This document shows positions 2,066 to 62,633 of a stretch of 64,000 nucleotides of DNA, piece by piece; position 1 is the first letter of the stretch; the number at the start of each line of letters is the position of its first letter. The DNA is from an uncultured Clostridium sp. (GTDB lineage: Bacteria; Bacillota; Clostridia; TANB77; CAG-508), in contig CABUKD010000004.1 in assembly GCA_902492105.1 (NCBI GenBank), positions 4,301 through 68,300 of the forward strand. The letters run 5' to 3'. The position numbers were made by a program, and so were the translations under genes. The notes under the pieces were generated by a model. The model was not told the origin of the DNA, searched no databases, and saw nothing but the letters and a program-made list of their open reading frames with translations.

Positions 2066-2195
2066 TTTTGCCTCCTATAATTTATTTTTTTGTTTCGCGA
2101 ACAATTATATTTATATTATATTTTTCTTTTTTTGTCTAGTATTTTTTGGAAAAAAGTGGAAGTTTTTATCGCCATTTTTTTACATTTTTTGTCAT

Positions 2196-2969
2196 CTATT
2201 TTAAGAAAATTCTTTCTATTTCACAAATGTGACCATTTTCTTCATTTAATTCAAAAATACATCCATTAAAAATACATTCGCCTTCTGCTAATTTGTACCT
2301 CTCTGGAAGAGAAGTTAAAAATCTTTTTACAGAAGCCTCTACTTCCATACCTATTACAGAAGTTTTTGGACCTGTCATACCTAAATCTGTAATATAGCCC
2401 ATTCCTTTTTGTGTGATTTCTTCATCTGCAGTTTGCACATGGGTGTGAGTTCCTACTAAAATAGAAACTTTTCCATCTAAAAAATATTTCATAGCAATTT
2501 TTTCAGCAGTAGCTTCTGCATGGAAATCTACCACAAAAAAATCTACCTCTGATTTTATTTTTTCTATTAATTCATCTACTACTGTAAAAGGATTTTCAGA
2601 TAAAACATTCATATCTGTTCTACCAATTAGATTTATAACTGCTATTTTTTTGTTATTGCACTCATAAACTCCATATCCTTTACCTACCACACCTTTTGAG
2701 TAATTTGCCGGTCTAATTAGTTTTGGATGATCTATAAAAGTAAAAATATCTTTTTTAGCCCAAGTATGATTTCCCATAGTTACACAGTCAAGAGGTAGTT
2801 TTAATAACTCGTTCCATGTTTTAAAAGTAAGTCCCATTCCTCCTGCTGCATTTTCTCCATTGACTACTACAAAATCAATATTTTTTTCTGCTTTTAGCTT
2901 TGGCAATATTTGTTTTACTTTATCTAAGCCATTTTCTCCTATAATATCTCCAACCATTAATATTTTCAT
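2196..2969 (-). CDS. ymdB: YmdB-family metallophosphoesterase (2',3'-cyclic-nucleotide phosphodiesterase)
   Basis: MKILMVGDIIG...VVNGENAAGG...GNHTW...DFHAEATAEK...GTHTHVQTAD motifs. Start moved to the internal MKIL; the 8-codon upstream extension looks non-coding. Confidence 0.85.
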   Translation of the reverse strand: MKILMVGDIIGENGLDKVKQILPKLKAEKNIDFVVVNGENAAGGMGLTFKTWNELLKLPLDCVTMGNHTWAKKDIFTFIDHPKLIRPANYSKGVVGKGYGVYECNNKKIAVINLIGRTDMNVLSENPFTVVDELIEKIKSEVDFFVVDFHAEATAEKIAMKYFLDGKVSILVGTHTHVQTADEEITQKGMGYITDLGMTGPKTSVIGMEVEASVKRFLTSLPERYKLAEGECIFNGCIFELNEENGHICEIERIFLK

Positions 2970-3280
2970 TTGTTGCTTCCGTCCTCGTATCATATATTTA
3001 GGTTTTTTTAAAGGCTACCTATAAACCTTTTTATTATCATACTATAAAATTTTTAAATGGTCAATTGCTTGTTACAAGCATTACTAATAATTATCTTTTT
3101 GTTTAAAATTATTGTTACAATTATAAGTTGTAAATAATCATTATTCTAAGATTGAAAAATTCTGCAAAAAAGCTAGATTTTTTATAAAAAATATTATAAA
3201 ATAAAAAAGGTGACTTTCTCATATGCACATGATTGTTTTACAATCCGCATAGTGCATTGAGTACCATTAATAAAACACAT

Positions 3281-23005: not shown

Positions 23006-24664
23006 TCATGCCTTATTTTCGTTTTCTACTTCTGGTTCTTCTTTATATATTCTTAATTTTACTAATAGTGCATATAGTTTTGTTCCAAATGGAATCATCA
23101 TCATATCTTCCTTTTTCAAAATTTTGAAAAGGATTATAAGAATACCATAAATAATAGCTCCTAAAATAATAGAGATAATTGTACTAAGATTTGGAGAAAT
23201 AATACTACTTAAACCTTGATTAATAAAGTAAGTAGCAATTCCCATAATAGTTGCTGCACCTATTGGTGCTATCACCATTCTGCCTACTTTAAACTGCAAT
23301 TTGATATTTTTTCTTAGTACCGTAAAAGTAATTAAAAAAGCAACAAATTGACATACTATAGAGCTAATACCTGCTCCCATAATTTCTATATTTGGATTAC
23401 TGATTAAAATAATATTTAATACAAATTTAATGACTGCCCCTATTCCCAGAGCAATTGCTGCTACATAAGTTTTATTTAATCCATATAATCCTCCATTAAT
23501 GGTTTGATTTAATGCAATAAATATCATTGGAATGGAGAATATCATTAACACTTCTGCACCATCATTTGCAGATGGATAAATTAAGTTCAAAATTGGTTGT
23601 GCTAAAGCCATAAATCCTGCCGCACATGGTAGAACAATTAAAAGAGAGGCAAACATAGAAAATGTCATCCTCTTAGAGGCCGTTTGTTTATCCTTTTTAG
23701 CTAAGGCCGCTGAAATAGCAGGGGTAAGTGCTGTTGAAAATGCTACATTAATGGCAGTAGGTAAGTTTACCAAAGTATCTACTTTAGATAAAATACCAGT
23801 TTTGCTCATAGCAAAAGCTTCTAGTTCTTCTTTAATTGGATACATACTAGCAAACGCTGTTTGAATACAATTACTTACTGTACTAGTATCAATTAATGGA
23901 TTAACTACTGATATGACAGAGCTAATGGTAACTGGAATAGAAATTACTAATATTTTCTTTAATAATTGTCCTGCTGTTAAATTTTCTTCTGGTGATGGTT
24001 CTTTTTGTTCTACTTTTAATTTTTTACGCTTGTAATAAATAATTAAATAAACAAAAGTTAGTAATATAGCAAGTGTAGTAGATAAATTTCCACCTGCAGC
24101 CATAATATATGGTTCTTTTCCAATTAAAGCATATACAAAAGTAATAGATAATACACAGTTTAAAAACTGTTCAATAATTTGAGAATAGCTTGTAGGTTTC
24201 ATATCATTTAAGCCTGCAAAATATCCTCTAAATGTTGCAGAAGCTGCCACAAATGCAATAGCAGGTGCTAACACTTGCATAACATACTTGGTGTCTGGTA
24301 CATTAAATATAGCTGTTGCAATATATTCTGCTCCAAAGAATAATCCTATTGAAAAAATAGTACCTAGTCCAACAAAAAATGTCATACAAATTCTAAAAAT
24401 TCTTTGTGCACCTTTTTCATCTCCTATCGCAACTCTTTCTGATACTAATTTAGAAATAACACTTGGAATACCAATAGAAGATAAAGCAAGTAATACAGAG
24501 TAAATCTGATATCCTGCAGAATAATATCCAAGCCCTGTATCTCCAAATCCTTCAAAATTGGTAATTACAAATTTATAAATAAGTCCTAATACTTTTACCA
24601 TAATCTGGGCAAACATCAGGATTAAAACATTCTTCATAAAAGATGTTCCCTTTTTTGACATCAC
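23006..24664 (-). CDS. MOP-superfamily flippase (SpoVB / polysaccharide biosynthesis protein type)
   Basis: 552 aa, about 14 TM segments, with the typical N-terminus ...ILMFAQIMVKVLGLIYKFVITN.... Confidence 0.75.
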   Translation of the reverse strand: MMSKKGTSFMKNVLILMFAQIMVKVLGLIYKFVITNFEGFGDTGLGYYSAGYQIYSVLLALSSIGIPSVISKLVSERVAIGDEKGAQRIFRICMTFFVGLGTIFSIGLFFGAEYIATAIFNVPDTKYVMQVLAPAIAFVAASATFRGYFAGLNDMKPTSYSQIIEQFLNCVLSITFVYALIGKEPYIMAAGGNLSTTLAILLTFVYLIIYYKRKKLKVEQKEPSPEENLTAGQLLKKILVISIPVTISSVISVVNPLIDTSTVSNCIQTAFASMYPIKEELEAFAMSKTGILSKVDTLVNLPTAINVAFSTALTPAISAALAKKDKQTASKRMTFSMFASLLIVLPCAAGFMALAQPILNLIYPSANDGAEVLMIFSIPMIFIALNQTINGGLYGLNKTYVAAIALGIGAVIKFVLNIILISNPNIEIMGAGISSIVCQFVAFLITFTVLRKNIKLQFKVGRMVIAPIGAATIMGIATYFINQGLSSIISPNLSTIISIILGAIIYGILIILFKILKKEDMMMIPFGTKLYALLVKLRIYKEEPEVENENKA

Positions 24665-51088: not shown

Positions 51089-52952
<1,864 letters not shown>

Positions 52953-53148: not shown

Positions 53149-53202
53149 ATGACAAGGTCAAAGTCCTCTGCTCCGAAGCAAATTCTAAAGGAGGAAAAAA
53201 AG

Positions 53203-54588
53203 ATGAACCAAGAATTAGCATATTCATTTCACTTAGGTAGTGATAAAAATAAGAGTAAGTTATCAAAGAAGGTTGCAAAAGAAAATGTATCTGGTTCTAC
53301 TTCTTTAGCAAATAATGCAATTCAAAATGTAAATGATTTATCTAGAGTAAATAAACACAATTTACGAGATTATGATAATCAAAGAGAACTAATTAGAGTA
53401 ATCTATGGTACAGATAATATTCTAACTGATGTGCAAGATTTATATTTACAAGAATTTGAAGAAGCCAAACTAGAATATAATAAGCAAACTAGAAATGATA
53501 GAAAGATAACTAATTACTTTGAAAAAATTTGCGAATCTCAAAATGATGTAGCTTGTGAGATTATAATTGAACTTGGAGATATGGATTTTTGGAATGATAA
53601 AGATGACAAATATAGATTTAAAATGATTGATGTATATAATGAGCAAGTAAAAGATTTAATTAATATTGTACCAACATTTAAAATAGCAAATGCAACAATA
53701 CATTTTGATGAAACCTCTCCCCACATGCACGTTGTTGGTGTTCCAGTAATTGAAAATTGCAAAAGAGGAATGAAAAAGCAAGTTGGAAAATCACAAGTAT
53801 TTACCAAAACGTCACTAACTGAAATACAAGATAAAATGAGAATGTCTTGCATTAAGTCTTTTAACAAGTTCTATGATATGGATTTCAAACTTAAAGATAA
53901 ACAAAAAGGTAGAAATCAAGATATAAATGTTAAAGATATGAGCGATTATAGACAAATTAAAAAGCAACTTGAAAACAAAGAGAAAAAACTTGCTGAAGCA
54001 AATAAACAAACTAAAAAATTAGATAATACGACAAAATATATAAATTCTATATTAGATAATTTAAAACCATCAAAACTAAATAAAAATAATATGCTTATTT
54101 CAATCGAAAATGTGCAAATAATAAAAAATTATACTGAAGATGTAAAAAATACTACTAAAGTTGTTAGAAACGTAAATGACTTAAATATGGCAATTAAAGA
54201 TTTTGAACACAGTTCTTTTGAAATAAAACAAGAAAACAATTCTCTAAAATATCAATTAGAACAAAAAAATGATGAAATAGATAACTTAAAAGGAGAATTA
54301 TCAGCTAAAGACAAAGTTATAGATAAATTACGAAATGAAAAAGAAAAGATAAAACAGGAATTGCACAAGTTTAAAGACTTTTGGTATAGTATTATGGGGC
54401 ATTTTCATAAAAGAATTTGCTATAATAAAGATGAAAACTATAAAATTGTTAGTGATGACTTATATAAAAATGGTATATTTACTGATGATGAAAATGAGAT
54501 AGCAAATGATATTAGAAGAAAAGTAAAACCTAAAGAAGATATTGAACAAATTAAAACTAAAAACAAAAATAATTTTGAATTAAAGTAA
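53203..54588 (+). CDS. MobV-family (Mob/Pre) plasmid recombination / relaxase protein
   Basis: ...ATIHFDETSPHMHVVGVP... (HxDE...PHxH motif) and a coiled-coil C-terminus. Start set at MNQELAY behind AGGAGG. Confidence 0.8.
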   Translation: MNQELAYSFHLGSDKNKSKLSKKVAKENVSGSTSLANNAIQNVNDLSRVNKHNLRDYDNQRELIRVIYGTDNILTDVQDLYLQEFEEAKLEYNKQTRNDRKITNYFEKICESQNDVACEIIIELGDMDFWNDKDDKYRFKMIDVYNEQVKDLINIVPTFKIANATIHFDETSPHMHVVGVPVIENCKRGMKKQVGKSQVFTKTSLTEIQDKMRMSCIKSFNKFYDMDFKLKDKQKGRNQDINVKDMSDYRQIKKQLENKEKKLAEANKQTKKLDNTTKYINSILDNLKPSKLNKNNMLISIENVQIIKNYTEDVKNTTKVVRNVNDLNMAIKDFEHSSFEIKQENNSLKYQLEQKNDEIDNLKGELSAKDKVIDKLRNEKEKIKQELHKFKDFWYSIMGHFHKRICYNKDENYKIVSDDLYKNGIFTDDENEIANDIRRKVKPKEDIEQIKTKNKNNFELK

Positions 54589-54973: not shown

Positions 54974-55771
54974 ATGAATAAACAAAGCAATGAAAGATTT
55001 AATGATTTAATTAATTATATAGAAGATAATCTTTGTGAAGAAATTAGTTATAAAAAACTATCTCAAATACTTGGTGTTAATGAATATACAATGCATAGAA
55101 TATTTTTATTTGTAACTAATTATACCCTAGCTGATTATATAAGAAAAAGAAGATTAAGTATGTCTGCTTTAGATTTACTTGAAGGGAAAGAAAAAATAAT
55201 TGACATTGCGGTAAAATACAATTATGAATCTTCACAAGCTTTTTCTAGAGCTTTTAAATCTATGATGGGCTTTATTCCAAGTGAGATAAATAATAATAAA
55301 AATAATATAAAATTCTTTTCGCAATATGAGCTAATAAATGAAAATGTGACAGATGAATTTCATTATCATATAGAAAAAAATATAAAATTTAACTTATATG
55401 CTATTTACATGAAAACAACAATCAAGAACTGCCATAATGAAGCTCCTATATTTTGGAAAGAGAATTATAAGTATATAAAAGGGAAAAAAGAATATGGTTT
55501 ATTAGAATATGATAAAACTTGTAGTATAGACGAAGCAATATATTATATAGCCTCTACAGAAACGTTTGAAAATGCAATAGAATTAAATTTAAAACCTAGT
55601 AATTATTTAGTTTTCGAATGTGATTATATAAATTCTACTTCATTGTATGAATTTTGCAAAAAAATATATAGGACAATTATTCCTAATATTGAATGTGAAT
55701 TAGAAGATTTACCAGATATTGAAGAATATTTACCGAACAACAAATTAAAATTATATATTCCAATAAAATAA
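54974..55771 (+). CDS. AraC-family regulator with GyrI-like effector-binding domain
   Basis: HTH_18-like N-terminus (...LSQILGVNEYTMHRIF...YESSQAFSRAFK...) and a C-terminal about 150-aa GyrI-like region. Confidence 0.7.
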   Translation: MNKQSNERFNDLINYIEDNLCEEISYKKLSQILGVNEYTMHRIFLFVTNYTLADYIRKRRLSMSALDLLEGKEKIIDIAVKYNYESSQAFSRAFKSMMGFIPSEINNNKNNIKFFSQYELINENVTDEFHYHIEKNIKFNLYAIYMKTTIKNCHNEAPIFWKENYKYIKGKKEYGLLEYDKTCSIDEAIYYIASTETFENAIELNLKPSNYLVFECDYINSTSLYEFCKKIYRTIIPNIECELEDLPDIEEYLPNNKLKLYIPIK

Positions 55772-55883
55772 ATAAAACAAGTGATTTTTTTAGTGTTAAA
55801 AAGGTCACTTGTTTTATTTTGAAAAGAGATACAATAAATATGTAGAATGTTATCTCAATTTGAATTAACTAGGAGGTTATGAG

Positions 55884-56867
55884 ATGAATGAATATTTAAC
55901 TCGTGAAATCTGGAAAATGCGGAAAAATATCAGAACTGAAGCAGGAACACCAGTAGTATCTCTGGTTCGGGTAGAAAATAAAACTTATCAATTGCTTTTT
56001 ATGTCTTGTGGATGCGAAAATGCTTGTACTTTTTGCAATTATGGCTTTGACTACAATCTTACGTTAGAAATGGTCAAACCAGAACTTCAAAAAATAAAAC
56101 TTGAAGATTTTGATATAGTTGAGTTGGAACTCGAGTCAAATGGCTCTTTTCTTTCTGAAAGGGAAATTCCCTATGATTTATTTCTTGAGATATTACATTT
56201 TGTATCCAATAGGAACATTCCTGTAATTACAATGGAAACTCATTATAATACAATCACAGAGAAGAAACTTCAGGACATAAGAAGAATTCTTGGTGAAGAA
56301 CAGGAAATACAGTTTGAGATGGGATTTGAATCAGCTGATGAAGATGTTAGAGCAATCTATAATAAAGATATAGATATGGAAAAGTACCTTGAAGTAACAA
56401 GATTGTGTAAAAAATACAAAATTGGTCTCCAAATCAATGTACTTTTAGGTGCTCCATTCTTGACTCGCGAAGAACAAATTCAAGACTGTTTAAATTCTCT
56501 CGAATTTATCTATGGTAAGATGCCTAAAGGAACTATTGCAGTACTATTTCCAATAAACATCAAGAAGAATACAATGTTAAAGCATTGGCAAGATATTGGT
56601 GTTTATGACCAAATTTCATCTTGGGAATTTGTTGAACTTCTTCATAGAATTCCTGAAGAATATTTGGACAAGTTTACTATTGCATGGTGGGGAAACAGAG
56701 AAAATACTTTCACAAAAGGTATTATGCAATTTCCTAAAACATGTGATAAATGTAGAGAGCGATTGATGAAATTCTATGTTGATTTTTATTGTAACTGTAA
56801 TCCTCACTATCGCAAGAAGATACTTGATGAAATTTGGACAACAAGGTGTGAATGCGACAAGAAATAA
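55884..56867 (+). CDS. Radical SAM protein (Elp3-like, TIGR01210-like class)
   Basis: CENACTFC (CxxxCxxC) cluster motif and a Cys-rich C-terminus. Uses two in-frame CGG codons (55920, 55968). Confidence 0.6.
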   Translation: MNEYLTREIWKMRKNIRTEAGTPVVSLVRVENKTYQLLFMSCGCENACTFCNYGFDYNLTLEMVKPELQKIKLEDFDIVELELESNGSFLSEREIPYDLFLEILHFVSNRNIPVITMETHYNTITEKKLQDIRRILGEEQEIQFEMGFESADEDVRAIYNKDIDMEKYLEVTRLCKKYKIGLQINVLLGAPFLTREEQIQDCLNSLEFIYGKMPKGTIAVLFPINIKKNTMLKHWQDIGVYDQISSWEFVELLHRIPEEYLDKFTIAWWGNRENTFTKGIMQFPKTCDKCRERLMKFYVDFYCNCNPHYRKKILDEIWTTRCECDKK

Positions 56868-56883
56868 AATTCCGCAATGCAAA

Positions 56884-56910
56884 GCAGATGGCTCTTGCCA
56901 TCTGTTTTGT
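56884..56910. terminator. Bidirectional terminator between convergent genes
   Basis: GCAGATGGC-TCTT-GCCATCTGTTTTGTG. Confidence 0.6.
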
Positions 56911-56915
56911 GTTTG

Positions 56916-57467
56916 TTAATTTAATAGTAAATCTTTTAAGTCTTTTTTTATTTTTGGTGGATAGTTATATATTGGATTACCAATAATAAATCCACATATT
57001 TGTTCAAAATCTTTAATTCCTAGATATTTATCAATTTCATTTTCTATATATAACGTATCACATAAAATGCAACTACCCAAACCTAAATTTACAGCTTGTA
57101 AGCTCATATTTTCTATTGCACATCCTAAAGATATATAATCAGGTTTTTTATAATTCTCATTTTTAGATTTAGATTTATACCCGTCACTATAAATCATTAT
57201 CATTTTATTGGCTGTACGTATTTGCTCTGCTGAGCCTTTTACACTGGTTCTTTCTTTTAGATTTTGTTTATCCCATTCGAAAAGCATATTCATAATATCA
57301 TCTTTTTGTTTATCGTTTAAAATATAAAATTTCCAAGGTTGCCTATTTCTTGCAGAAGGTGCTAGACTTCCACTTGATAAAATCTTTTCCAATTGTTTTT
57401 CAGAAACTTCATCATTTGTAAATAATCTAGCAGAACGTCTAGTATCAACTATTTCATCAAAATTCAT
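56916..57467 (-). CDS. Nitroreductase-family protein
   Basis: ...DTRRSARLFTNDEVSEKQLEKILSSGSLAPSARNRQPWKFYIL... Confidence 0.8.
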   Translation of the reverse strand: MNFDEIVDTRRSARLFTNDEVSEKQLEKILSSGSLAPSARNRQPWKFYILNDKQKDDIMNMLFEWDKQNLKERTSVKGSAEQIRTANKMIMIYSDGYKSKSKNENYKKPDYISLGCAIENMSLQAVNLGLGSCILCDTLYIENEIDKYLGIKDFEQICGFIIGNPIYNYPPKIKKDLKDLLLN

Positions 57468-57616
57468 ATCAATACCTCATAAAAATATTTTAAATATATT
57501 TTATTGAATTTATAATATAAAAAAATGACTTTAATGATATCAAATTTGTTTATATAAATTAATCAAAAGTTTACTGTGGTTTAATTATACTATTAAGACT
57601 ATAATTTAATTATATA

Positions 57617-58414
57617 TTATTTTAAATATTTAACATCTGTATCGTTCAAAATTTGCATTTGAGATATAGCAATTTTATTTAATTTTTCAAGTCTTTCAGA
57701 TTGTTTTAACCCTTCTTTTATAAAAACCGAATTTAAATTTTCTAAATTTGCTAAACATATCAATTCATTCATAGTCGCATAATTTCTTATGTTTCCATTT
57801 AAATTAAGATTATTGGTACGCCATTCTTTTGCAGTCATACCGAATAGTGCCATATTTAAAACATCAGCTTCTTCTGCATAAACAAAATTTATTTGATTTT
57901 TGTTTAATTCTTTAGGAATTAAATTGTTTTTTATTGCGTCAGTATGTATTTTATAATTTATTTTTGAAAGTTCTCGTTTTGCATTCCATCCTATTTGTTT
58001 TTGTTCTTCTGCTTTTAGTCTTTCGAATTCTTTTATTAATAATAATTTGAATTTTGGGCTAATCCACATTCCAAATTCAAAAGCAATATCCTTATGAGCA
58101 TAAGTTCCACCATATCTTCCAGCCTTTGAAATTATTCCAATTGCATTTGTTTTTTCAGTCCACTCTTTAACACTAATTTTATAACTATTTAAACCTGCTT
58201 GACTTTTAATTATGGCGAATTCGCCATAATTAAAATTAAGATTGTGAATTTCTTCCCAAATTCCTAAAAATTCAATAGTATTCCTGTTTCTTAACCAATC
58301 TGAAACAAAAAAATCACCATCTTTAGACTTTAACATATCAGTAATAGATATGTAATCTTCATTTTCGATTTTTATATAAGATATCTTTTGATTTAAAACA
58401 CTTAATTCTGCCAT
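57617..58414 (-). CDS. KilA-N domain-containing protein
   Basis: ...YISITDM...WLRNRNTIEFLGIWE...GGTYAHKDIAFEFGMWISPKFKL... Confidence 0.75.
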   Translation of the reverse strand: MAELSVLNQKISYIKIENEDYISITDMLKSKDGDFFVSDWLRNRNTIEFLGIWEEIHNLNFNYGEFAIIKSQAGLNSYKISVKEWTEKTNAIGIISKAGRYGGTYAHKDIAFEFGMWISPKFKLLLIKEFERLKAEEQKQIGWNAKRELSKINYKIHTDAIKNNLIPKELNKNQINFVYAEEADVLNMALFGMTAKEWRTNNLNLNGNIRNYATMNELICLANLENLNSVFIKEGLKQSERLEKLNKIAISQMQILNDTDVKYLK

Positions 58415-58579
58415 ATCTTGACCTCCTCTTTGAAATAATATAACAATTAATTTTTATCATTATACCAAACATAAGTTCTACAATCAATACTATTTGAAAA
58501 TTTTGTAAAAATATTCTATTATATAGTAGAAATATGACTTTGAAAAATGTAAATTAAATTTATTATACGTGGAGGATTT

Positions 58580-60205
58580 ATGAAAATAGAAAATATACTA
58601 ATTAGTGGAAAAGAAGAAAGCATTGATATTTGTTGTAGCTTATTTGGATATGCAGAGCTATTAAATAAATTACACATTCCAACAGGATACAATATAAAAC
58701 ATCAACCATATGAATTCGAGAAAATTTGTAAAAATTTTAATATAAATATAAACAATTCTAGTATTTCTAATAAAAAGACAATATTAGTAGGATTTTCTCA
58801 AAAATATTTTAATGAAAATAATATAGATAATTACAATATAAATAAAATTGTAACTAATAAAGATGTTGAAAAAATAATAGAAGATAATATTTCAATAAAA
58901 TATATAAAATGTGGATGTATTTCTAGTATCATAGCCAAAGAATTTTTGAATAATAATATTAAGCCTTCTAAACAAAGTGCAATATTATTATACTATGGTA
59001 TTGTTTATCAAACGGTAAATTTAAGATCAAAAAATACAAAAGTTATAGATTTAGAAATGGCACAATATTTAAAAGAAATTTATGAAGATGTTTTTTTAAA
59101 AGATAATATCAACAATATTTTTGCAATTAATAATTTTAAAGATGTATTATACAATAAATTAGAAAAACATTTAGTGAAGATTAACAATACGTTTGAAAAT
59201 CTATATATAGGTGTTATATGTATTCAAACAATAAATTGCCAGACGATTATTGAAGAAAATTTCAATTTAATATGTGATACTTTAGAAAGGTATAGAAGAA
59301 TAAATGAATTAGATTTTTGTATTCTACTAATGCAAGATTTTGAAAAAGGATATTCCTATATTATTAATCCTGTAAAGGAATATGAAAAACTAATTACTCG
59401 CTTGTTTCATTCTCAATTTAATAATTCTACTTTAGAATACAATCGTATAATATGTAACAGTGAGATTATATCTAGATTATATAAACTATGTACTTTTAAA
59501 GATGATATTAATACATTATGTACAGAGAAAAATATGTTCTTTAGCAATGTTAGATGGTGGGTGAATTTATGCATTGCTTCTATGAAAAAAATAGATTTAA
59601 ATCAGCTTGAATACGGAAAAAATCAACCAATAAAACGAAAACGAGAAATCATAAAAAATGCTTGTAATAAAGATTTATATTATTCAACATTTACTTACTT
59701 AGTTGCAGGAATGGAAGACTTTTTTACACAATTAATAAAACTAATTTTACAAAAAGATAATAGACGTTTATTAGTAACTATAAAAGATATAAATTTTAAA
59801 AGTAAATATGACCTTAAAAATATAGTATTAGCTAATAATAAAGAAGAAATAATTGATTTTATTATTGAAGACAGAATTATTTCTATTATGTATGCGAATC
59901 CAAGATGTCAAGCTGAATATTTTAGAAAAGCATTAAGTATAAATATATCTGATGATGAATGGAATAAATGGTATGAGATAAAAGCTACAAGAGATATAAT
60001 TGTTCATAATTTAGGAATAATAAATGAAACCTATATTGAGAAGGCAGGTGTATCTTCAAGAGGAAATTTAGGAGATACTATTAGAGTAGATACAAGTTAT
60101 TTTCTTTCTTCTATAAAGTTTATGAAGAAAATTATAAGTACGTGCAATGTAATTATAAAAGATGAATTTGTATTTAATAATAATTATTATTATCAAGAAT
60201 TTTAA
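58580..60205 (+). CDS. Fusion protein: degenerate DHH/family-II-pyrophosphatase-like N-terminal half plus C-terminal HEPN-like domain
   Basis: CGCISSIIAKEFLNNNIKPSKQSAILLYYGIVYQTVNLRSKNTKVIDLEMAQYLKEI aligns with ppaC from this window ([57 protein letters not shown]). The DxD, D and DHH catalytic motifs are lost. The C-terminus has ...ATRDIIVHN... (Rx4H). Confidence 0.55.
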   Translation: MKIENILISGKEESIDICCSLFGYAELLNKLHIPTGYNIKHQPYEFEKICKNFNININNSSISNKKTILVGFSQKYFNENNIDNYNINKIVTNKDVEKIIEDNISIKYIKCGCISSIIAKEFLNNNIKPSKQSAILLYYGIVYQTVNLRSKNTKVIDLEMAQYLKEIYEDVFLKDNINNIFAINNFKDVLYNKLEKHLVKINNTFENLYIGVICIQTINCQTIIEENFNLICDTLERYRRINELDFCILLMQDFEKGYSYIINPVKEYEKLITRLFHSQFNNSTLEYNRIICNSEIISRLYKLCTFKDDINTLCTEKNMFFSNVRWWVNLCIASMKKIDLNQLEYGKNQPIKRKREIIKNACNKDLYYSTFTYLVAGMEDFFTQLIKLILQKDNRRLLVTIKDINFKSKYDLKNIVLANNKEEIIDFIIEDRIISIMYANPRCQAEYFRKALSINISDDEWNKWYEIKATRDIIVHNLGIINETYIEKAGVSSRGNLGDTIRVDTSYFLSSIKFMKKIISTCNVIIKDEFVFNNNYYYQEF

Positions 60206-60444
60206 ATGATTTCATTAATTATTTATAAAATAAAGTATTGATAATATTTCTAATTTATGTTAAAGTATAAACAATAAATCGAATTATATAAAAAGTGAGC
60301 AATTACATTGTTTTTAATTTTTTCGCATACCTGTTTCGTAATCGCTCCATTTGAATACAACTTACGGACTATAAAAAGTTCGTAAGTTTTTATTTTTATA
60401 TATGAAACTTAAATGTTCTCTTTCTAGGAAGGAGGACATTTTTT

Positions 60445-60729
60445 ATGCTTGAATTTAAGACCATTCAGACTTTAAAGCCGAATACGGAAATACTTGAAGT
60501 GATTAAGGATTATAAATACAAAATTAAAAACGGTAAGGTTAAAAATCTACTACACACCAATTTACAAGTTATAGAACCCACTGAATATCTGATTACATAT
60601 CCTATTACTCTTACAATACTAGAATACAAAGTAAATGAAATATCTAGTAAAACATTTTATATTAAAGAGCATAATCAAAAATACAATCTCAAAGAAATCA
60701 AACAAATTTTAAATAATTTTAAAGTTTAG
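60445..60729 (+). CDS. Small hypothetical protein
   Basis: 94-aa ORF behind GGAAGGAGG. No family recognised. Confidence 0.4.
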   Translation: MLEFKTIQTLKPNTEILEVIKDYKYKIKNGKVKNLLHTNLQVIEPTEYLITYPITLTILEYKVNEISSKTFYIKEHNQKYNLKEIKQILNNFKV

Positions 60730-60842: not shown

Positions 60843-62633
60843 ATGAGATGTGGTATTTATGTAAGAGTTAGTACAGACGACCAAAGAGATAACGGTTATT
60901 CTATTGATTCACAACTTCGTATGATTAAAGAATATTGTAAAAAGAATGATTATAATATTGTAGATGTTTATAATGACGCAGGACATTCTGGTAAAGATTT
61001 AATGCGACCAGAAATGCAAAGATTACTTGCTGATATAAAATCTAAAAAGATTGATAAATTAATTGCCATTAAAGTAGATAGACTTACAAGAAATAATTAT
61101 GATGGCTTTTGGCTACTTAACTATTGTGAAGAACATGATGTTAAAATAGAACTTATTTTAGAACCTTATGATGTATCTACTGCTAATGGTGAAATGATAT
61201 TTGGTATGAATTTAGTCTTTGGACAACGAGAAAGAAAAGAAATTGGAGCAAGAACGAAACGTGCTATGGAAGAAATGGCGTTAGAAAAAATACACCCTAG
61301 TAAAGCACCCTATGGCTATATTAGAAATAAGGAAACAGGTCATTTAGAAGTAGAACCTATTGAAGCACAAGTTGTTAAAGATATATTTGAACTATGCAAA
61401 CAAGGCAATTCAACAAGAAGTATAGCAACGATTATGAAAGATAATAACGCCTATTTAAAACAAGGCAAGTGGGCATCTGATAGAATTTATAAAATACTCA
61501 CTAATGCTATTTATATTGGTATATTTGAATATGGAAAATATAAAAGAAAGCCACAAGACATTTTAAGAGTTGAAAACTATTGTGAGCCAATTATAGATGA
61601 AATTACTTGGAATGTTACTAGAAATGTATTAGTTAAAAATAGGCACTCAAATTATGGAGAATACATTCATTTATTTTCAGGATTAGTAAAATGCCCTATA
61701 TGTAGAAATATTATGAGTTCATCAGAATCATTTAAATATCCCAATGGCAAATTAAAAGTATATTATCATTTAAGATGTAAAAATCATAATTGTAAAGGAT
61801 TTGGACTTCATTATAATACTGAAAAAATAGAAAACAAATTAAAACAAATACTAGAAGAATTAACAATATTTATACTTTGTATGGATAATGAAATTATTAC
61901 TTGTAACTCTACTAAAAGCAATGATGTAAAAGAAATAGAAAAAGCTATTGAAAAGTTAAAACTACAAGAAAAAAGATTAGTTGATTTATATCTAAGTTCT
62001 AACCTAGATGTAGAAACTATTAATTATAAAAATGACATTATAAAAAAAGAAATTGATAAATTAAACAAAAAGAAAATTAGTCTTGATCCAGACAACTCAT
62101 CACAAGAATATACAGTAGAACTCATAAAAAAACTAGATTGTATAGAAGAAAATGAAACTTTAATTTTTACCAGTATTAAAAATATCGGCTTTACTTTTCT
62201 ATATGATTTACTATCACGAGAAGTCAAAAGAGATATGATTCATAGACTTGTATCACAAATAGAAATTACTAGAGATAAAAATTATAATATTGAAATTAAA
62301 GATATAAAATTCACAGATGAATTTATAACAAAAAGCAGTAAAGAGTATTTAAAATATCTTAATAAAATAATGACTGATAACAATACCGGAATTAAATATC
62401 AAAAAGAAATTAACAAAGAAAAACTAAAAGATTTAGAACAAGATTATGATATTTTATCAGTTACAAAAATGAAAAATAATAAGTATTCTAATGAATTTTT
62501 AGGAGATTTTATATCAAAATCCAAAGAGCATTTATATATAGATGGTATTATCAGTTGTCCTTATGTTAAAGATAATAAGTTAAAAGACATTTTAATATTA
62601 GTACCTAAAACTAAAATGGAAATAGCAAATTAA
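60843..62633 (+). CDS. Large serine recombinase (TnpX/integrase type), intact
   Basis: CGIYVRVSTDDQ...IKVDRLTRN resolvase domain, recombinase domain, zinc ribbon CPICRNIM...LRCKNHNC, coiled coil. Confidence 0.85.
   Translation: MRCGIYVRVSTDDQRDNGYSIDSQLRMIKEYCKKNDYNIVDVYNDAGHSGKDLMRPEMQRLLADIKSKKIDKLIAIKVDRLTRNNYDGFWLLNYCEEHDVKIELILEPYDVSTANGEMIFGMNLVFGQRERKEIGARTKRAMEEMALEKIHPSKAPYGYIRNKETGHLEVEPIEAQVVKDIFELCKQGNSTRSIATIMKDNNAYLKQGKWASDRIYKILTNAIYIGIFEYGKYKRKPQDILRVENYCEPIIDEITWNVTRNVLVKNRHSNYGEYIHLFSGLVKCPICRNIMSSSESFKYPNGKLKVYYHLRCKNHNCKGFGLHYNTEKIENKLKQILEELTIFILCMDNEIITCNSTKSNDVKEIEKAIEKLKLQEKRLVDLYLSSNLDVETINYKNDIIKKEIDKLNKKKISLDPDNSSQEYTVELIKKLDCIEENETLIFTSIKNIGFTFLYDLLSREVKRDMIHRLVSQIEITRDKNYNIEIKDIKFTDEFITKSSKEYLKYLNKIMTDNNTGIKYQKEINKEKLKDLEQDYDILSVTKMKNNKYSNEFLGDFISKSKEHLYIDGIISCPYVKDNKLKDILILVPKTKMEIAN

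Follow-up and report, generated by a model that had tools for sequence, protein, structure and literature searches.

A degenerate family II pyrophosphatase-like module fused to a candidate HEPN domain in mobilisable elements of gut Clostridia

Introduction

What might a pyrophosphatase-like domain stripped of its metal-binding motifs be doing in one polypeptide with a domain that carries a ribonuclease (RNase)-like motif? The question is raised by an open reading frame (ORF) of 541 amino acids (aa) at 58580..60205 (stop codon within the coordinates) on the (+) strand of a 64-kb stretch of a contig from an uncultured Clostridium sp. We call this stretch the window, and positions refer to it unless a comparison locus (L0xx) is named. 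An initial annotation of the window had proposed that the ORF fuses a catalytically dead DHH/pyrophosphatase-like half to a HEPN RNase domain. We found that the ORF is real, with a Shine-Dalgarno sequence, GGAGG, read from the sequence at 58571..58575 (+), 4 nucleotides (nt) 5' of the ATG, and that it has a two-domain architecture. Residues 1-303 (58580..59488, +) are a degenerate DHH+DHHA2 module, as judged from the NCBIfam model PRK05427, AlphaFold2 (AF2) modelling, Foldseek comparison, motif loss and the ratio of nonsynonymous to synonymous substitution rates (dN/dS). Residues 304-541 (59489..60202, +) are a copy of an unnamed family of ~245 aa with a HEPN-like helical domain, as judged from phmmer, alignment and AF2. 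We put at roughly 0.5 the probability that this fusion is a single-polypeptide conflict effector, in which a HEPN-like RNase is gated by the non-catalytic DHH+DHHA2 module. The annotation had also supposed that such an architecture was undescribed, and our literature search agreed: it returned no paper with DHHA2 together with HEPN and none on a DHH-HEPN fusion.

Results

The N-terminal half of the fusion is kin to family II pyrophosphatases, as the initial annotation had recognised. PRK05427 (Mn-dependent pyrophosphatase) matches residues 60-285 with E=6.5e-13, and pyrophosphatases in the PDB are matched by this half with a best E=4e-4. The scores are low, with 48.8 bits for this NCBIfam model (NF003877), far under its curated cut-off of 283, and a sub-threshold 14.1 bits for Pfam DHH on the fusion ORF against a cut-off of 28.1. 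An AF2 model built from a 13-sequence alignment has a predicted local distance difference test score (pLDDT) of 80-95 over residues 1-300. When this model was compared with the PDB by Foldseek, the top 14 matches were all family II pyrophosphatases, with template modelling (TM) scores of 0.68-0.80. The best was Bacillus subtilis PpaC (E=2.9e-17, TM 0.74-0.80), and the DHHA1-type NrnA/Pde enzymes trailed at E ~1e-10 and TM <0.5. A residue-for-residue alignment with the ppaC gene of the window had been claimed as well. That gene is present (~49397-50341, +, with its catalytic motifs intact), but what it shares with the fusion ORF is an ungapped block of ~25% identity with a pairwise BLASTP E=0.078; it is the profiles, and not this pairwise match, that make the pyrophosphatase relationship significant. 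A second ORF, at 23006-24664, was considered as the ppaC of the window and ruled out, as it shows no similarity.

The loss of metal-binding motifs that had been read from the letters is borne out by our alignment (A1). Motif I, GHTNPDTDS, has become GKEESIDIC (K-EESID), in which D16 is the sole metal ligand retained; motif II, VDNNE (VDxN), has become GFSQK (GFSQ); motif III, DHH, is TNK; and motif IV, SDT, is YQT. In the DHHA2 domain SRKK has become CNSE, so that the substrate-binding Arg-Lys pair is replaced by Asn-Ser. The metal-motif substitutions are identical across all fusion alleles, and the DHHA2 position reads CNSE, SSSE or SNSE. The lowest-confidence loops of the model, residues 76-83 and 96-100, come directly after the former motifs II and III. 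We found nine intact 541-codon alleles in other loci, none with an insertion or deletion, and the full-length ORF is under purifying selection (dN/dS = 0.13-0.21). This holds for both halves, at 0.13-0.29 for the N-terminal and 0.10-0.15 for the C-terminal half. Since all nine alleles are free of indels and keep a dN/dS of 0.13-0.29 in this half, the N-terminal module appears to be a maintained pseudo-enzyme and not decaying sequence.

The nearest relatives of the N-terminal half are not ppaC but separate DHH paralogues of 306 aa (P0008, P0010 and P0012), which are 24-33% identical to it and have the helix block SAILLYYGI in common with it. These paralogues retain DxD and DHH; in them the His of motif I is Tyr or Thr and the Asp of motif IV is Asn. 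They score 130-137 bits against the PpaC cut-off of 283, and going by these motifs and scores they may not be true pyrophosphatases. One of them (L014, 6001-6921) belongs to a long run of co-directional genes that includes HD, acetyltransferase, zeta-toxin-like and methyltransferase genes.

The C-terminal half belongs to a large family. A word-indexed homologue search with this half alone gave almost no matches, and an exhaustive phmmer search of 1.84 billion representatives recovered 680 proteins at E≤1e-3, 214 of them at E≤1e-10. Stand-alone proteins of ~245 aa make up nearly the whole set; their N-termini align at about residue 307 of the fusion, and therefore an entire gene has been fused behind the DHH module. 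The family spans Planctomycetota, Alpha- and Betaproteobacteria, Clostridia and many environmental metagenomes. Those members that have any name are called 'hypothetical protein', and neither Pfam, NCBIfam, PADLOC nor PHROGs holds a name or a consistent match for the family. It is coherent all the same by hhalign (E=3.5e-42). Among 101 diverse representatives, 19-41% identical to the query (alignment A3), R471, D472, H476 and K488 are invariant (101/101), and E379, P441, E466, K468, A469, N482, Y485, Y507 and K516 are at least 90% conserved, E379 in alignment A4 as well. R471, D472 and H476 are also invariant across all fusion alleles and are kept in a divergent subgroup. The resulting signature, E-x-KATRD-x3-HN-x-G-x2-N-x2-Y-x2-K, contains the Rx4H block EIKATRDIIVHNLG (R471...H476) to which the initial annotation had drawn attention.

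Is this domain a HEPN RNase? The published description of the superfamily gives a four-helix core built from two hairpins, with an insert between helices 2 and 3; an Rx4-6H motif at a helix end ahead of a loop, with a polar N, D or H after the Arg; and a frequent acidic residue in helix 2, often as Ex3[K/R] (PMC3710099). In the fusion the motif reads R471-D472-I-I-V-H476 (codons at 59990..60007, +), with the polar Asp directly after the Arg. An AF2 model of the C-terminal half, built from a 37-sequence alignment, is all-helical (pLDDT 92.6, predicted TM score 0.88), with helices by DSSP at fragment residues 2-42, 57-98, 164-183, 189-198 and 211-246 and a helical insert between the second and third of these. 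The motif closes helix 164-183, which terminates with R177...H182 (R471...H476 of the full protein), and a loop comes next. The near-invariant E379 (codon 59714..59716, +) lies in the long second helix. The order of two long helices, a helical insert, the motif helix and a long last helix is compatible with a HEPN core. Since the motif fits the published description in its residues, in where it lies and in its polar Asp, and an upstream Glu and the order of the helices are compatible with it, HEPN membership of the family is plausible but unproven, as far as alignment and model can tell. The HEPN call of the initial annotation thus gains an invariant motif, placed at a helix end in the model, but the domain is recognised by no profile library.

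Several results weigh against HEPN membership or against a toxin role. The conserved Glu has no K or R at +4 and so departs from the common Ex3[KR] pattern. Pfam searches with the C-terminal half, all 101 members and three consensus sequences gave no consistent HEPN link, nor did NCBIfam, PADLOC or PHROGs tie the family consistently to any established HEPN family. Profile searches of the PDB came back empty, both for the family (A3) and for the subgroup that diverges most (A6). A HEPN-like fold had been named in the initial annotation as the feature to look for in structure prediction, and the Foldseek top 50 in the PDB held no HEPN structure; the best match had E=0.06 at TM ~0.2, and the top matches were generic helical bundles of syntaxin- or spectrin-like type. 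Foldseek against BFVD matched two uncharacterised phage proteins, of which a siphovirus protein is the only real match (E=1.2e-6). Many stand-alone members sit among housekeeping genes (SecA, IMPDH, Cpn60 and metabolic genes), and the family is nearly absent from viral contigs. One allele of the fusion, from a metagenome-assembled genome (L010, 3181-4806), carries a single nonsense mutation at K110 (AAA to TAA) in a gene that is otherwise 93% identical and lies in a background where kilA-N, the divergent neighbour described below, is partly deleted; we count it on this side, and it fits a costly toxin or a dispensable gene alike.

The strongest alternative is that the C-terminal family is not a HEPN RNase at all and forms a long helical bundle with another role, such as nucleic-acid or protein binding or some other chemistry of its R, D, H, K and Y residues, in which case the fusion would serve the mobile element in a regulatory or structural capacity. 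The fold search found no HEPN despite a high-confidence model, no profile of any HEPN family matched, and the domain is about twice the typical HEPN size, with 40-residue helices. We nevertheless regard this as somewhat unlikely. The invariant R-D-x3-H at a helix end and the conserved Glu upstream have both the signature and the placement of HEPN, and HEPN families are mutually undetectable by sequence, some being structurally distorted (PMC3710099). In addition, the models hit in the only two sub-threshold matches, each from a single member, are both HEPN models: HEPN_RiboL-PSP (E=0.02) and PADLOC RTasHEPN (E=0.0016).

The stand-alone members were examined for genomic context. No recurrent partner gene was found among the 87 family genes examined. 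Their 143 non-redundant neighbours include integrases, AAA_21 and SMC-type ATPases, a DNA methylase, MobA and IstB, and one plasmid copy adjoins a tyrosine recombinase and an IS30 transposase. Three neighbours are retron-type reverse transcriptases (RTs; PADLOC RT-Toprim I-C, E down to 1e-218). This adjacency arose in two independent lineages, between which the family proteins and the RTs are both only ~30% identical. The family gene precedes RT-Toprim in L038 (4755-7543) and L042 (4722-7542), and the RT comes first in L049 (3636-5519). One RT beside a family gene is a stand-alone RT of 323 aa, and there the family gene occupies the usual effector position. Retron non-coding RNAs (ncRNAs) of Rfam were looked for in the RT-adjacent loci and none was detected. 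Elsewhere (L009, 5971-7500) a TIR_2-domain gene begins with no gap after a family gene; a MobA/MobL relaxase and a type IV secretion system coupling protein lie on either side of the pair, so that this member sits on a conjugative element. The overall pattern suggests accessory, variable-region genes with a defence flavour, short of proof.

The fusion gene is an autonomous transcription unit, often but not necessarily accompanied by a kilA-N gene. The kilA-N gene (57617..58414, -; 265 aa; Pfam KilA-N E=5e-23), correctly placed and named by the initial annotation, is divergent from the fusion gene across a 165-bp intergenic region, and the two make up a conserved cassette of 2.75 kb (57611..60365) that is ~86% identical at the nucleotide level to its copies in L002 and L017. 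A promoter-like sequence upstream of the fusion ORF, TTGAAA-17-TATTAT at 58494..58522 (+), is a consensus match of a kind that shows no excess over shuffles in the window; its start is the exact end of deletions and rearrangements in other loci (58482-58494). At the downstream edge of the cassette lies a terminator-like hairpin of 12 pairs followed by a T-run (60359..60388, +). The kilA-N gene is intact in L002 and L017 and absent from L013, which shares merely ~100 bp upstream of the fusion ORF. L003, L004, L005, L010 and L011 have a 526-bp deletion by which 57967 is joined to 58494 and which takes the first 149 kilA-N codons and spares the promoter-like site. The fusion ORF is intact at all compared loci except L010. 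The autonomy of the gene follows from its own Shine-Dalgarno sequence, promoter-like site and terminator-like hairpin, and from its integrity where kilA-N is deleted or absent.

Could kilA-N and the fusion instead form a two-gene system, the DNA-binding KilA-N protein serving to regulate the fusion protein, to sense on its behalf or to neutralise it? The genes diverge over a short interval, and the cassette moves as a unit among elements with different cargo (the window, L002 and L017). In PADLOC the KilA-N protein hits the defence candidate PDC-S22 over its full length (E=3.5e-125; residues 3-260 on profile positions 6-268 of 281), and BstA is a KilA-N protein of abortive infection (Abi). We nonetheless consider such a system unlikely, given that the fusion is intact in four loci whose kilA-N lacks 149 codons and in L013, that PDC-S22 is catalogued as a single-gene candidate, and that no partner recurs beside the 87 other family genes examined. 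The pairing proposed by the initial annotation is thus real and recurrent, yet the fusion gene persists where its neighbour is truncated or missing, and an obligatory antitoxin role for KilA-N is ruled out by the same loci.

The 94-aa ORF downstream (60445-60729), which the annotation had counted with the unit, does not belong to it. Homology between loci stops at the fusion stop codon or within 150 bp of it, in L001, L002 and L017 at 60349-60365, and ends before this ORF, which rules it out as a partner or antitoxin. A second terminator-like hairpin (60411-60441) overlaps the ribosome-binding site of the 94-aa ORF (GGAAGGAGG) just before its start codon, and could occlude translation initiation there and not terminate transcription.

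Inside the minus-strand kilA-N gene lies a perfect 32-bp palindrome, TTTTAATTATGGCGAATTCGCCATAATTAAAA, at 58204-58235, with an EcoRI site at its centre. It is the longest perfect palindrome in the window and is 100% identical in L002 and L017 despite the ~86% overall identity of the cassette. It may be a cis-acting DNA element within a KilA-N defence gene. The 'aba' self-immunity element of BstA was considered as an explanation and set aside as a loose analogy at most, aba consisting of direct repeats.

The remaining alternative, put forward in the initial annotation, is that the dead DHH module turns the HEPN RNase on when it senses a nucleotide messenger (cyclic oligoadenylate, c-di-AMP or pApA), as in CARF-HEPN proteins; fusion of a sensor domain to HEPN is an established design (reviews), DHH-DHHA1 enzymes bind pApA and cyclic dinucleotides (PDB entries) and the N-terminal half is under purifying selection, but the idea is improbable because the fold is of the DHHA2 pyrophosphatase type and not that of DHHA1 NrnA/Pde, the module has lost its metal ligands along with the Arg-Lys clamp of DHHA2, and the cassette, kilA-N and fusion only, brings no linked signal synthase (cyclase or Cas10), the gene moving without a constant partner.

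The fusion is rare. It forms seven close protein clusters, 77-96% identical, all from gut metagenomes or metagenome-assembled genomes (MAGs) of Clostridia, and was found in 2 of 185,579 species-representative genomes, both of them uncultured Clostridia MAGs. Of 87 metagenome-recovered family genes one is a fusion (L017) and all others are ≤341 aa. Plasmid and phage collections searched by nucleotide and protein with the cassette or the fusion gave no match.

Its surroundings in the window are those of a mobile element. Serine recombinases flank it on both sides, as the initial annotation had noted. The downstream one (60843-62633) resembles the TP901-1 integrase (E=2e-19) and also TnpX, and the upstream large one is split into two overlapping (+) strand frames, 51089-51988 (299 aa, with the catalytic YIRVSTEDQ) and 51951-52952 (333 aa), and is either a frameshifted pseudogene or the product of a sequencing error. 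A library scan of the window placed a Mob_Pre relaxase at 53149-54588; the region also carries a radical S-adenosylmethionine (radical-SAM) gene, and TnpV occurs in the fusion context. The copies of the cassette in L002 and L017 sit amid flanking cargo unlike that of the window. L017 has the same Mob_Pre backbone with different intervening cargo: where the window has AraC-like, radical-SAM and nitroreductase-like genes (54974-57467), L017 has one unrelated gene of 331 aa (2076-3071). It follows from this single-gene replacement that the backbone swaps cargo around a constant kilA-N/fusion cassette. Of the defence-island or mobile-element context that had been proposed, the second part stands: the fusion is cargo of a mobilisable element and does not lie in a classical defence island.

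Discussion

In the reading that we favour, the fusion would be a self-contained abortive-infection or toxin-type protein carried as cargo by mobilisable elements of gut Clostridia. The C-terminal ~240 residues would be the effector, a predicted metal-independent RNase. HEPN RNases cleave independently of metal, leave 2',3'-cyclic phosphate ends and generally need two domains with paired motifs, and activation of the RNase would come when two C-terminal domains pair theirs. The N-terminal ~300 residues would act as a gate that silences the RNase until a cue arrives, either as a dimerisation and hinge scaffold or as a sensor that binds the trigger. Family II pyrophosphatases form homodimers, and a hinge connects their DHH and DHHA2 domains; the dead module could therefore provide both dimerisation and a hinge controlled by a ligand or a protein. 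As the cue, a cyclic nucleotide is less likely than a protein or a phosphate-type ligand.

A broader and more tentative idea is that the ~245-aa KATRD-x3-HN proteins constitute an unrecognised, widespread clade of HEPN RNases encoded by solo defence or toxin genes, sometimes beside retron-type RTs or TIR genes. The Clostridia fusion might then represent a new kind of gating, in which a pseudo-enzyme derived from a family II pyrophosphatase senses the trigger or acts as a hinge; what it reads might be pyrophosphate, polyphosphate or a protein of a phage.

If HEPN membership holds, the fusion would add a variant of the sensor-plus-HEPN theme, and its C-terminal family would be a HEPN-like one not described before; otherwise a family that has a catalytic-looking motif but no name would be left to explain. 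Should the family prove to be an RNase, at least 680 clusters of 'hypothetical protein' would acquire a testable function, and the solo-gene conflict systems would gain a candidate. The fusion would also be a case of a housekeeping phosphohydrolase fold that was inactivated and re-used as a toxin regulator, which would extend the sensor-plus-HEPN design beyond CARF and SAVED. The practical reach of the fusion is limited, as it is confined to a handful of gut Clostridia elements.

How does the fusion compare with known systems? For its DHH module the closest likeness is to PpaC and the 306-aa paralogues, which have the same two-domain DHH+DHHA2 fold. The fusion differs from PpaC in that H9, D13, D75, H97-H98, D149 and the DHHA2 R-K pair are all replaced, in that its scores lie far below the family cut-offs, and in that the module is joined to a second domain. 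There is precedent for a DHH fold that has lost phosphoesterase activity and taken on a scaffold role in Cdc45 and the archaeal RecJ-like GAN; Cdc45, a component of the eukaryotic replisome, is of the RecJ/DHHA1 type, and its context is unrelated to that of the fusion.

Among effectors with a sensor, Csm6 and Csx1, the CARF-HEPN proteins of type III CRISPR systems, similarly place an N-terminal Rossmann-like sensor before a C-terminal HEPN RNase (reviews). The fusion differs from them in carrying a degenerate DHH+DHHA2 module in place of CARF, with no Cas10 or cyclase nearby and no CRISPR context. More generally, CARF and SAVED effectors combine a nucleotide sensor with a co-encoded cyclase, and the fusion cassette has no such combination. 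The neighbouring gene, and not the fusion itself, resembles BstA and PDC-S22 as a protein with an N-terminal KilA-N domain and a link to abortive infection. BstA, however, is proteobacterial and prophage-borne, and PDC-S22 is only a candidate system.

For the stand-alone family members, the HEPN effector of type IX retrons offers a comparison, since it adjoins a retron RT as two stand-alone lineages do. That effector is a protein of 174 aa that lacks Rx4-6H (it uses H64 and R122) and whose constant partner is a winged-helix protein, upstream of the ncRNA and the RT (PMC7736814; bioRxiv 10.64898/2026.07.14.738597). The stand-alone proteins have a canonical Rx4H, a length of ~245 aa, no fixed partner and a different gene order, which rules out that they are this effector.

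The closest parallel to a solo conflict effector is HepS ('HEPN Solo') of the Salmonella Gifsy-1 prophage, a solo HEPN Abi protein that stays inactive until a trigger remodels its oligomer (PMC13043305). HepS is smaller than 250 aa, has no fused enzyme-like domain and carries its motif as R100-H105, and the C-terminal family matched no HEPN protein in PDB profile or fold searches. What the fusion and HepS have in common is a single protein, borne on a mobile element, with a canonical Rx4-6H motif and independent of any dedicated partner gene.

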